A stretch of DNA of 63,300 nucleotides, counting the filler, from an uncultured Methanosarcinales archaeon (GTDB lineage: Archaea > Nanobdellota > Nanobdellia > Woesearchaeales > JAGLXL01): assembly GCA_964472345.1 (NCBI GenBank). It is 8 parts of 8 records of this genome, joined end to end, with 100 filler letters (N's around TTAATTAATTAA, not from the genome) between each part and the next. Parts side by side here need not be neighbours in the genome. Positions count along the whole stretch, not along the records: positions 50,300 to 57,536 come from CAYYLB010000061.1; 7 more parts are not named here. The stretch is one strand, 5' to 3'. Shown here piece after piece: positions 54,001 through 57,000 of this stretch. The stretch's first letter is position 1. Every line of letters begins with the position of its first letter. The position numbers were made by a program.

Positions 54001-57000
54001 GGAGGCACTTTCTCTTTTTTCCCGGAAGGCGCAGGAAGAAGCGGAGCCGGCGGAAGAACCCGAGACGGCTGAAGAGCCACGAGCACCCATTGAATCAAAA
54101 AAGCCGGCTCCTGAACCGCTGCGTGCCAAACCTGAGCCCGCGGCAGTAAAGCAGCCGAAAGTCCCATTTCAAGCCAAAGGGAAAGCAGCCGCTGAGCAGC
54201 CGCCATCGCCGGTTCCAAAGCCGGGCGCCAAGGCGCCTCTCCCCCCGGCGCAGGAGACTGCCCAGGCGCAACCCGGGCAGCCGGCTCCACAGCCTCCCGA
54301 GCCGCGTCTTTCCATCCCATGGGAGCGGGAAACAGAAGTAACACCTGCACGGGCACAATCCCCGGCAGCAGCCCCGGCACAGGCGCACCCGCAGGCACCA
54401 AAGCCCGAGCTGCAGGAGCAACCGCCCCCCCCACTGGCAGGAGAACCCCTGGGAGAGGCCGCCCCTGCGCACAAGCAATCGTTCTTCAGGCGTATCTTCA
54501 CGAAACGTGAGCAGCCCGGGCAGGCATCCCACGCTGAGCCGCCTTCCGCGCAGCCAGCGGGAGCATCAGAAACTGCGCCAACGCGCCGTGCTGCGGACGG
54601 CAGCCAGCAGCCCCCTTCCAAAGGCATATTCACCAAAGCCAAGGAGCTGCTCACCACCCGCAGGCTCTCAGGGGAAAAGTTTGACGAGCTCTTCTCGGAC
54701 ATGGAGATTGCTCTGCTCGAAAACAACGTCGCCGTTGATGTCGTTCACAGGATCAAGGCCGATCTCAGGGCAAAGCTGCTCGACAAGCCCCTGCCCCGCG
54801 ACCTGGAAGCGGTGGTCGAGCAGACCCTCAAAGACAGCCTTGACGGCATCATCAGCATCGAGCAGCTCGACATGCTCCGCACCGCTGCAGCAAAAAAGCC
54901 ATTCGTGATCGCATTCTTCGGCATCAACGGCTCGGGCAAGACGACCACGATTGCCAAAGTCGCCGCATTGCTGCAGAAGCACGGCCTGAGCACAGTCATT
55001 GCGGCTGCCGACACGTTCCGCGCTGCTGCGATCCACCAGCTCGAAGAGCATGCCACCAGGCTGAACACCCGGCTGATCAAGCACGACTACGGCGCTGACG
55101 CGGCCGCTGTTGCGTTCGACGCAATCAAGTTCGCCAGGAAGAACAGCAGCGACGTTGTCCTGATCGACACCGCAGGCCGCCTGCACAGCGACCGCAACCT
55201 TATGGACGAGCTGAAGAAGATCGTGCGCGTCGCAAAGCCGGACCTGAAAATCTTCGTCGGCGAGAGCATCACCGGCAATGACTGCATCGAGCAGAGCCAG
55301 CAGTTCAACGAGCACATCGGCATCGACGCCATCATCCTGACGAAGGCGGACGTGGATGAGAAGGGCGGCACCGCCGTGAGCATCAGCTACGTCACCCGAA
55401 AGCCTATCCTCTACCTCGGCACCGGCCAGCGCTATGAAGACCTGCAGCCGTTCACCAAGGAGCTCGTTCTTGAGCATTTGGGGCTTGGGGCCTAAGCTGC
55501 TGAATACGGGAACACAGCACCGGCGTTATTGAAAAGTTCGCCAATGCCCTAAAATCACCGCAGTGATTTGGGTCCCAGAAGCGCACTTCTGCTGACGGCC
55601 AGTGAGCGCCGGCGTAAGCGGAACGCCTGCCAGGCTTTAGCTCGATGCCAGTCCGAAGGACAAGCGGGTCGAGCGTAGCGAACGGGAACTTTTCAATAAC
55701 GCCACAGCACCGGAATATTTAAATAGTGCCGCTATCTCCATCAAAAAATGAATGAGAAAAAAGGGCTGGCGATTGCGTCGCTCATCCTAGGCATTATCGG
55801 CATTTTCGTGTTTGGTTTCATCTTGGGCCCGTTGGCCATCATCTTCGGCATCGTCGCCGTGAGCAAAGCCAAGAAGCAGCCAAAAGTGTATGCGGGCAGG
55901 GGACTCGCCATTGCCGGGATTGTGCTCGGTGCGATCGCGTTGGTCCTGAGCATCGTCTGGTTCGTAGTGATCGGCGCGTCGATATTGAGTTTCTTATCTT
56001 CATCAGTGCCCCAGGCGTAATCTCAGGGAGCGTGCGGCGTTCTTTTCTTCTTTGTTTTTCCCTTCCGGTGTTATGACAGCGGGCTACTGCTCGTAGAACT
56101 TCACACTCCCTTCAAAATAAATCCCTTTCTTCAGCTTCACCGGCCGCCAGTCATCAACCACCAGTGCGGCATCGAGCCACGCCGCAAGCTCCTCGGGATT
56201 GCCGATCGTCGCGCTCAGCGCAATGATCTGCGCATTGACAAGCTGCCGCAGGATCGTCAGCAGGATCTCAAGCGTCGGCCCGCGGCCCGGATCGTTCAGC
56301 AGGTGCACCTCATCGACGATGATTGTCGCGATCTCGCTGATCCACGGCGCATGGTGCCGGATGAGCGAATCAAGCTTCTCGCTGGTGGTGATGATGAGAT
56401 CGTACCCCGCCAGGTAGCCGTCCGAGCTGTCCAGGTCCCCGCTGCTCAGCGCGACTTTTGCCATCGTTCCATAGCGCGCGGTGAAATCGCGGTGCTTCTC
56501 GCTCGCCAGCGCCTTGAGCGGCACGATGTACACCGCCTTGCCTTTCTTTTCAAGGATGCGCTTCATCGCCGCCAGTTCCGCAATCAGCGTCTTCCCCGAA
56601 GCGGTCGGCGTGCAGACCAGCAGGCTCTTGCCATCAAGCAGGCCTGCGCTGACGGCCTTTTCCTGCGCGGGACGGAGCGTGTCCACCTGCCCTTCCAGCA
56701 CGCCCAGCAGCGGTGCGGGAATCCTGCCCTGAAGCTCACGGAGGCGCATGGGTTTCAGGTATGTATAGCCTATATAAATTATAATGCTCACTTTTATTAT
56801 TGCCCAGCGCCTATAAACACAGCATGGAAGGCAAAGATATCGGGGCGCTTGCCGACCCGCTGGTTCGTTCCCGGGGCGCATTATACGAAACAACGGAAGA
56901 GCAGCGCGCGGACGCACGCACCGACAGAACGAACAGACTCGNNNNNNNNNNATATTTATAGGAGATAAAACCACAAGTGCTCCCATGGAAGTATTGGCTG

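Follow-up and report, generated by a model that had tools for sequence, protein, structure and literature searches.

SF1 and SF2 helicases are viewed as motors built on one chain, with two RecA domains that are joined covalently and close on ATP; to our knowledge every Hel308 characterised is likewise a single polypeptide of ~690-720 aa. Archaeal Hel308/Hjm, a Ski2-like SF2 helicase of DNA repair (structures 2zj2, 2p6r and 2va8), gave the best PDB matches for both proteins described here, which resemble it in all domains and motifs; however, in the present case a break within RecA2 divides the polypeptide into products of 221 and 515 aa whose genes are unlinked. Split genes are already known in DPANN archaea, and the split Hel308 is a further variant. 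In Nanoarchaeum equitans, likewise a DPANN archaeon, the SF2-helicase-containing DNA enzyme reverse gyrase has two unlinked genes, and their products form an active heterodimer (PMC4117796), whereas association of the Hel308 halves is predicted from modelling. The N. equitans cut sets the whole helicase module apart from the topoisomerase module, and the two-subunit reverse gyrase of Methanopyrus kandleri is cut within its topoisomerase part; both keep the two RecA-like domains on one chain, whereas the Hel308 described here is cut through the motor core.

The large helicase-related protein Lhr is listed as a split protein gene of Nanoarchaeota (NEQ003/NEQ409, Nst172/239; PMC3655853). It is also an SF2 DNA helicase from the same class, but belongs to another helicase family, and the two nanoarchaea do not share the split site. 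The class also includes G178, a single-contig genome of 0.5 Mb, where 356 kb separate Lhr residues 3-594 from residues 603-686 and the cut falls after both RecA domains. Split-intein genes such as that of N. equitans DNA polymerase (NEQ068/528) also place one protein on two unlinked genes, but they carry intein halves and the products are ligated after translation, whereas the ends of the split Hel308 are without intein sequence. A literature search confined to papers outside subscription journals found no mention of a split Hel308 and no described case of a two-subunit Ski2-like helicase split in its motor; there was none in passages of PMC6349945, PMC3655853, PMC10946056, PMC8301817, PMC13623763, PMC2636818, PMC4117796 and the preprint 10.64898/2026.05.13.725050.

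Two complete genes for one Hel308

The window analysed is a stretch of 63,300 nucleotides made of eight contigs joined by N44+TTAATTAATTAA+N44; its positions 50300-57536 correspond to contig G000:C61 of a 120-contig assembly. On the minus strand of this contig, at 56084..56749, an open ATG-to-TAG frame encodes 221 aa comprising RecA1, the linker between the RecA domains and the opening beta-hairpin of RecA2 (the N-half). Searching PDB sequences with phmmer returned Hjm/Hel308 as the top match (2zj2 residues 18-214, aligned with N-half residues 19-217, E 8.6e-64), with further matches to 2p6r residues 1-219 and 2va8 residues 15-216, while Pfam recognised the DEAD (RecA1) domain only. The Hel308 RecA1 motif set (Q, I, Ia, Ib, II DExH, III SAT) is complete. 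Motif I/Walker A (T47-PTASGKT-54) lies at 56588..56611 and motif II/Walker B (D146-E-V-H149) at 56303..56314, both on the minus strand with coordinates read from the sequence, and motif III (S179-A-T181) at 56207..56215 on the same strand. Residues P48, T49, S51, G52, K53 and T54 of motif I, D146, E147 and H149 of motif II and the whole of motif III are invariant in 15/15 N-halves, as are Q29, PLxxLAxEK at 77-85 and TxEK at 122-125. A TATA-box-like element, TTTATATA (56771..56778, minus strand), 22-29 nt upstream of the ATG, is a putative promoter. Neither Rfam nor tRNA scanning of this contig gave a hit.

The complementary gene (the C-half) lies on a separate contig, at G000:C7:25422-26969 on the plus strand, as an open frame of 515 aa encoding the remaining RecA2, winged helix, ratchet and helix-hairpin-helix. 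It matches 2zj2 at 228-705 (C-half residues 13-500), 2p6r at 238-680 and 2va8 at 247-706. Pfam identified Helicase_C together with all three accessory domains of Hel308 (domains 3-5): the winged-helix-like HTH_61 at residues 185-256, although at 21.9 bits it falls under its 24.3-bit cut-off, Helicase_dom4_arc ("Archaeal helicase domain 4") at 312-436 (E 2.8e-29) and HHH_5 at 443-493. The RecA2 motif set IV, IVa, V and VI is present; in 15/15 C-halves F82, H83, H84, G86 and L87 of motif IVa FHHxGL (F/YHHAGL, named as in PMC10484726) are invariant, and so are Q148, G151, R152, A153, G154, R155 and P156 of motif VI QxxGRAGRP. The ratchet-helix tryptophan is retained, W405 aligning with Afu W599, a residue named in PMC2636818. 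A TTTATAA at -30 to -24 is a putative TATA element, which may act as the promoter. The surroundings of the C-half, compared at 15 split loci and 6 fused ones, showed no conserved neighbour save Ig/PKD-repeat surface proteins in five genomes, which were possibly matched only through their repeats.

Taken together, the two products cover solved Hel308/Hjm end to end without loss and carry all five Hel308 domains and all helicase motifs. A genome search of G000 found no full-length Hel308; the other SF2 matches were a DSHCT (Ski2/Mtr4-like) helicase, a Hef-like frame and an unbroken Lhr-like frame, the Lhr and Hef labels being our reading of these frames. The division of Hel308 into two genes in this genome, both ORFs being intact, is thus confirmed, as the survey's finding of two complete unlinked genes had claimed. 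Since the five domains do not lie on one polypeptide but on the products of two unlinked genes, the pair is a Hel308 orthologue with changed architecture rather than a canonical member.

The survey had assigned the halves to Hel308 residues 1-216 and 217-706, split exactly between the RecA domains. The N-half matches end at 214-219, the best 2va8 stretch of the C-half begins at 247 rather than 217, and the break falls ~21 residues inside RecA2 by the domain definition of PfuHjm. The N-half retains the interdomain linker (DWRPV) and a C-terminal tail, W201-Q221 (WRPVKLKKGIYFEGSVKFYEQ; 56087..56149, minus strand), homologous to the first ~21 RecA2 residues of PfuHjm, including the first beta-hairpin. 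Its W201 aligns with Hjm W198, and domain 2 of Hjm is given as residues 198-399 (PMC2636818). Within the tail, R202, P203, V204 and L206 are invariant among N-halves. That the break lies inside RecA2 rather than at the domain border bears on how the halves would hold together.

The junction was identical in 14/14 genome pairs, the N-half ending no more than ~13 residues past the last aligned residue and the C-half beginning ~7-17 residues (mostly 8-12) ahead of the first conserved RecA2 block. In a species-wide scan of 80 loci, 63 ended 0-21 aa past the end of the match to the window protein, at or just beyond a "..G.IEF" motif, 16 were fused and one ran off its locus. The pair thus has the features of DPANN-type split genes: two complete unlinked ORFs, a split site common to relatives and fused outgroups.

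Distribution of the split and its origin

Genomes of the order carry the public title Candidatus Woesearchaeota, and all genomes analysed are metagenome or single-cell assemblies. Among 151 sampled, the N-half was detected in 138 (E <= 6.4e-51, frames of 197-350 aa, none fused), which extends the survey's count of a stand-alone RecA1 in 28 of 30 families; the C-half was detected in 141 and both halves in 132. A second sample, overlapping the first, gave the N-half in 146 of 154 order genomes, every frame being 153-350 aa. The split form spans at least 136 family codes, and the eight genomes with six or fewer contigs (G016, G022, G025, G028, G085, G097, G098 and G108) all have both halves. The identity of 48-76% to N-half orthologues in the 137 other genomes, together with the invariant motifs, indicates purifying selection. 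The halves are never adjacent: in 13/13 same-contig pairs they lie 3.3-423 kb apart (37, 276 and 332 kb in G016, G022 and G025), in agreement with the wide separation already reported.

Single halves were found in 15/151 genomes (6 N-half only, 9 C-half only). Assembly gaps can explain single-half genomes, and two of these, G037 and G084, do show fragments at contig ends. One partner may also have been lost in some lineages: both G096 (N-half only) and G106 (C-half only) are rated 100% complete, and in G106 the neighbour at the ftsY site is an unrelated 183-aa ORF, with no N-half remnant found beside ftsY.

The split had been described as present throughout the lineage, which holds within the order but not for its sister orders, where Hel308 is either fused or not detected. 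In the second sample, 6 of 47 genomes from other orders of the class gave a match, all of them fused (687-744 aa), with the N-match and the C-match contiguous in one frame, the former reaching residue 214-234 and the latter beginning at 227-246.

The N-half has a conserved tail-to-tail neighbour, ftsY (SRP receptor GTPase; Pfam SRP54 and SRP54_N), located in the window at 53972..55495 on the plus strand. Of the split loci whose 3' flank reaches 2.5 kb or more, 31/53 have it beside the N-half, against 0/16 fused loci; of the 37 loci that show ftsY, 36 have it convergent on the N-half 3' side. This arrangement in most relatives is compatible with a single old rearrangement. Gene trees were poorly resolved, with the 112-row N-domain tree unresolved and free quick trees requiring 3-4 state changes. 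With the split forms kept together, the C-part tree improved on the free quick tree by 22.8 lnL (p-AU 0.89), and the N-part, tested on 44 rows out of 112 (every one of the 22 fused rows plus 22 chosen split rows), gave a p-AU of 0.46, such that a single origin is not rejected by the sequence data. One fused sequence, L089, whose kinship is not established, groups beside split sequences (SH-aLRT 87-92). The split may have arisen by one chromosomal rearrangement with its breakpoint in a RecA2 surface loop, and the same event would have placed the 5' part of hel308 tail-to-tail with ftsY.

Proposed assembly of the two products and alternative explanations

In complex prediction the N-half and C-half scored an ipSAE of 0.82 (runs 0.82, 0.83 and 0.81; best of three controls 0.01), above a mark reached by 116/157 solved complexes and 2/215 mismatched pairs, reproducing the value of 0.85 obtained before. 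At least 93% of contacts agreed between runs, and partner pLDDT was at least 88. The halves are thus predicted to bind each other, although the score may reflect memory of solved single-chain Hel308, and so likeness to those structures rather than binding of these copies. The predicted interface joins N-half residues 48-50, 147-158 and 180-184 to C-half 147-156, and N-half 202-219 to C-half 160-169, contacts being tightest between 206-211 and 163-169.

These contacts suggest how the enzyme might be built. Each gene, having a start and a stop of its own as well as a TATA element resembling a promoter, would be translated separately, and the two proteins would join non-covalently. The 21-residue N-half tail, a proposed donated beta-strand, would dock beside the C-half strand that follows motif VI, rebuilding an intact RecA2 fold while the hinge between RecA1 and the linker stays covalent. 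Walker A/B in subunit 1 would then lie opposite the motif VI arginines in subunit 2, creating the usual SF2 ATP site across the interface; homology and structure prediction both point to an ATPase site formed by two polypeptides. Because the two far-apart genes cut through the ATP-driven motor, Hel308 would have to be assembled from two proteins. The survey's interpretation is supported, and we put at roughly 85% the probability that this is a real, ancient Hel308 gene fission, fixed in one DPANN order and giving a non-covalent two-subunit enzyme. The fuller picture, of a working two-subunit SF2 helicase with a divided motor core, held by beta-strand donation into the RecA2 sheet and kept since one rearrangement at the root of this very large archaeal order, seems to us about evenly balanced.

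Three other explanations were considered. An artefact of one metagenome bin (mis-assembly, frameshift or pseudogene) might be suspected in a 120-contig assembly with a 10-N gap (56942-56951) 193 nt upstream of the N-half ATG. However, the gap lies outside the gene, contigs from four DNA runs, all belonging to one study and possibly to the source sample, run through the N-half stop codon without indel, the same structure recurs in 137 other genomes, four of them single-contig, and its sequence is under purifying selection; this reading is effectively refuted. It is improbable in the extreme, though less so than an artefact, that a single chain is restored after expression by a split intein or by RNA trans-splicing as for Nanoarchaeum split tRNAs. 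The same class is known to have split-intein as well as split-tRNA genes (PMC3655853), and inteins occur in this family: the C-halves of G072 (Pfam Intein_splicing and LAGLIDADG_3) and G087 (an insert of ~457 aa) contain cis-inteins. These, however, lie away from the junction, at C-half residues ~119 and ~150. Both genes carry their own stop or start codon, and the close ends described above, in 63/80 loci for the N-half and 14/14 pairs for the C-half, leave no space for an N-intein after the N-half or a C-intein before the C-half. Flank complementarity between the N-half 3' side and the C-half 5' side showed no excess in 15 genome pairs (z -2.1 to +1.8 against mononucleotide shuffles, one pair below -2).

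The strongest alternative, which we nevertheless regard as unlikely, is that the halves no longer cooperate, a RecA1 protein or C-half having acquired its own function (e.g. as an ATP-binding regulator or partner of another protein) and the order being without true Hel308 activity. Consistent with this, the genes are unlinked, no shared regulation is shown, and the 15 single-half genomes include two rated 100% complete. On the other hand, two of those 15 are contig-end fragments, and both halves co-occur in most genomes and in all eight of the least fragmented. Moreover, each half keeps motifs that are meaningful only in a composite SF2 ATP site, with the motif VI arginines invariant on one side and Walker A/B and SAT on the other, and the RecA2-derived tail is conserved. 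A non-covalent two-subunit helicase is therefore the most likely product, judged from sequence and prediction.

If so, this would be a natural helicase whose activity depends on the assembly of two separately expressed proteins, and control by subunit supply would be possible. A split kept by selection across so many families would show that the cut site, which leaves the hinge whole and falls in a RecA2 loop behind the first hairpin, is tolerated without losing the enzyme. Hel308-type motors are used in single-molecule work, and the natural cut offers a ready design for a split or assembly-controlled Hel308. The fission also adds a deep, order-defining marker to the split genes of DPANN archaea, one that would date to the ancestor of the order and not to a recently reduced genome. 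Surveys that discard "partial" sequences would overlook Hel308 in this order.

Among the C-halves, apparent three-piece genes were rejected as further fissions, the pieces in G073 and G037 stopping at contig ends and G103 having two frames with a 32-nt overlap, suggestive of a frameshift. A 769-aa frame in G056 was likewise rejected as a fusion with RecA1, its extra length being a C-terminal extension.

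Two genes covering one Hel308

The 221-aa gene at window 56084-56749 (minus strand; hereafter the N-half) is an open frame from ATG to TAG on contig C61 of the genome under study, which occupies positions 50300-57536 among the eight contigs joined by spacers of N44+TTAATTAATTAA+N44. In a search against the sequence of every solved structure, archaeal Hel308/Hjm proteins came first, matched over their N-terminal third only (2zj2, residues 18-214, E 8.6e-64; 2p6r, residues 1-219; 2va8, residues 15-216). Pfam detected a DEAD (RecA1) domain and no Helicase_C, and no same-strand continuation of Hel308 was present downstream at the locus, where a convergent DUF4190 membrane protein gene and then ftsY (window 53972-55495, also convergent) occupy the 3′ side. 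A 515-aa gene on contig C7 (25422-26969, plus strand; the C-half) matched the same structures further along (2zj2, residues 228-705; 2p6r, 238-680; 2va8, 247-706) and contained Helicase_C, a winged-helix-like HTH_61, 'Archaeal helicase domain 4' (ratchet) and HHH_5 domains, so that both genes together cover one Hel308 end to end. A search of all 120 contigs of this genome (1.26 Mb, rated 100% complete) found no full-length Hel308; the weaker matches to the N-half were a 638-aa DEAD+Helicase_C+DSHCT helicase of the Ski2/Mtr4 type (36% identity), one Lhr-like frame and one Hef-like frame. These results confirm the survey's finding that Hel308 is encoded by two separate genes.

The N-half itself is free of the 10-N scaffold gap found 193 nt before its ATG, and its stop codon is spanned, with no insertion or deletion, by contigs of four DNA runs that belong to one study and may derive from the source sample. 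TATA-like boxes read from the sequence before both genes (TTTATATA and TTTATAA) end 22-24 nt before the ATG, a distance common in archaeal genes with little or no leader, and are putative promoters.

Position of the cut and predicted complex

The survey's interpretation is supported apart from one point, the position of the cut, which it had placed exactly at the border between the two RecA domains. Domain 1 of PfuHjm is described as residues 1-197 and domain 2 as residues 198-399 (PMC2636818). In a structure-sequence alignment W201 of the N-half corresponds to Hjm W198, so that the linker between the domains and ~21 residues from the start of RecA2 belong to the N-half; the alignment thus places the cut in the loop after the first RecA2 hairpin, off the domain border. 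The N-half ended within ~13 residues of '...WRPVxLxxGVYxxGxIEF' in 14/14 genome pairs (<=8 residues in 13), and the start Met of the C-half lay ~7-17 residues (mostly 8-12) before '...LALDTxxxxKQALxFV' in all 14. The N-half match (to residue 214-234) and the C-half match (from 227-246) sit in a single 687-744 aa frame in six fused relatives, which shows that no sequence is missing where the gene was cut.

The N-halves and the C-halves of one set of 15 genomes were each aligned. All 15 N-halves are invariant in motifs Q, I, Ia, Ib, II (DExH) and III (SAT) and, within the WRPV linker, at R202, P203 and V204 (W201 is present in 14/15). The 15 C-halves show no variation in motif IVa (FHHxGL), in motif V residues, in motif VI (QxxGRAGRP) or at the tryptophan of the ratchet (W405, which aligns with Afu W599).

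Prediction of a complex of the two halves, run on these alignments, gave an ipSAE of 0.82 (runs 0.82, 0.83 and 0.81) compared with 0.01 for the best control, with at least 93% of contacts in common between runs and a partner pLDDT of at least 88; the mark for this score was reached by 116/157 solved complexes and 2/215 mismatched pairs. Because single-chain Hel308 has solved structures, the score may reflect recall of these by the predictor, and the model shows that the pair can be arranged as a Hel308, which falls short of showing that it binds. In the predicted layout Walker A (48-50), DExH (147-158) and SAT (180-184) of the N-half lie opposite motif VI of the C-half (147-156). The most confident contacts join N-half residues 206-211 to C-half residues 163-169 (the strand after motif VI), and the N-half tail is predicted to dock as a strand onto the RecA2 sheet of the C-half.

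Distribution in the order and alternative explanations

The closest relatives carry the public labels Candidatus Woesearchaeota, Nanoarchaeota or Nanoarchaeia. In a sample of 151 genomes of the order (136 family codes, the genome under study included), 141 matched the N-half at E <= 1e-10; three (G006, G019, G117) matched only at the level of the Ski2-like paralogue and were dropped, leaving a true N-half in 138 (E <= 6.4e-51, 48-76% identity), all in open frames of 197-350 aa and none fused. The C-half was found in 141/151, in frames mostly of 480-620 aa with a common start point. Of the 151 genomes, 132 had both halves, 6 the N-half alone, 9 the C-half alone and 4 neither half; without two unpublished genomes (G112, G132) the N-half count was 136/149 and the C-half count 139/149. 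In a second, partly overlapping sample of the phylum, the N-half was found in 146/154 in-order genomes (frames all 153-350 aa), and 6/47 genomes of other orders matched, all six with full-length frames of 687-744 aa. Among the best 80 loci of a species-wide scan, 63 N-halves ended 0-21 aa past the match to the window protein, at or just beyond the '..G.IEF' motif, 16 loci were fused (Aenigmarchaeota, Bathyarchaeia, two Nanoarchaeota/Woesearchaeota-labelled records and three unlabelled archaea) and one ran off its locus.

The halves were adjacent in none of 13 same-contig pairs, lying 3.3 (G127), 13.5 (G136), 21 (G149), 29 (G021), 37 (G016), 54 (G119), 92 (G034), 93 (G098), 170 (G085), 275 (G022), 307 (G108), 332 (G025) and 423 kb (G097) apart, and all eight genomes in <=6 contigs carry both.

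Inserts lengthen the C-halves of some relatives to 946-1056 aa (G072, G087; also G093, G129, G079). That of G072 (locus L148, contig C5) contains an intein (Pfam Intein_splicing and LAGLIDADG_3) after residue ~119, in the motif V region, and that of G087 (L182, C31) a ~457-aa insert at residue ~150, in the motif VI region; the split gene therefore appears to have two intein sites. The C-half of G056 (L181, C56) carries a ~220-aa C-terminal extension in a frame of 769 aa.

The most likely mechanism, to which we give a probability of about 0.85, is a non-covalent heterodimeric Hel308 held together by strand donation, for which binding and activity are both inferred. An artefact is excluded by the distribution of the same split across the order. 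Restoration of a single chain by protein trans-splicing is likewise excluded, because no intein sequence is present at either end, and the cis-inteins of some C-halves sit elsewhere (~119 in G072, ~150 in G087). Trans-splicing at the RNA level found no support, as flank complementarity ranged from z -2.1 to +1.8 across 15 genome pairs and a separate stop or start codon is present in each gene. The sole rival carrying some weight is that the two halves have independent functions: a single half occurs in 15/151 genomes, although two of these cases (G037, G084) are contig-end fragments. G106 and G096, each rated 100% complete in ~20 contigs, are without one half, and the ftsY site of G106 is occupied by an unrelated ORF, although marker-based completeness leaves room for an assembly gap in both.

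Origin, known split genes and other features of the window

Of the 37 loci where ftsY was seen, 36 have it 3-2416 nt beyond the 3′ end of the N-half in convergent orientation; counting split loci whose 3′ flank reaches 2.5 kb or more, this arrangement was found in 31/53, compared with 0/16 fused loci. These functionally unrelated genes are kept as a tail-to-tail pair across much of the order (loci L009-L081). The pairing dates back to the origin of the order and is consistent with a single rearrangement that broke within hel308; among C-half loci, no neighbour conserved comparably to ftsY was found. Gene trees were weakly resolved, and free quick trees require 3-4 changes of state. The N-part tree with split forms held together was not rejected (p-AU 0.46), and the constrained C-part tree beat the free search by 22.8 lnL (p-AU 0.89). 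The closest fused sequences were that of G180, from another order of the same class, and those at L053, L071 and L089. G180 also has, immediately 5′ of its fused hel308 and in the same orientation, a second Hel308-like frame (L169, C2, 714-3302; 863 aa).

Split protein genes are described as a trait of Nanoarchaeota and other DPANN archaea, with reverse gyrase, Lhr, DNA polymerase and others as examples (PMC3655853, PMC6349945). The split reverse gyrases described in PMC4117796 keep the helicase module whole, whereas Hel308 is cut through the motor core. Similarly, Lhr of G178, a 0.5-Mb single-contig genome of the class, is in pieces 356 kb apart (C1:925-2694 and C1:357082-357333) and cut after residue ~594 (near 600), beyond both RecA domains; in the genome under study and three other genomes of the class Lhr is in a single frame. 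Because these cuts spare the helicase core, what is new here is an SF2 helicase split through its motor core and fixed across a whole order. A full-text search, with subscription journals outside its scope, found no mention of a split Hel308. Such genes would be hidden by the filters described for a 2024 survey of Ski2-like helicases in archaea, which discarded partial sequences and set a minimum profile coverage of 60% (PMC10946056).

The stretch between ftsY and the DUF4190 gene (window 55510-55715) contains an element of ~190 nt bounded by inverted repeats of ~18-26 nt. Its predicted fold is much more stable than those of shuffled sequences (z -4.8 for both strands), and searches of Rfam and for tRNAs gave no match. 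Full or partial copies on at least 19 other contigs of the genome make it look like a repeat of the MITE type, and its depth in metagenome contigs is 20-40 times the local value. At window 50303-52217 (minus strand) a PAD_porph-type (agmatine deiminase-like) gene adjoins a carbon-nitrogen hydrolase gene, a pair we take to be typical of putrescine synthesis from agmatine. On the next contig (window 57637-59156), a GroEL-like protein, identified from its translation, and a small GroES-like ORF constitute a putative bacterial-type chaperonin pair in a DPANN archaeon.
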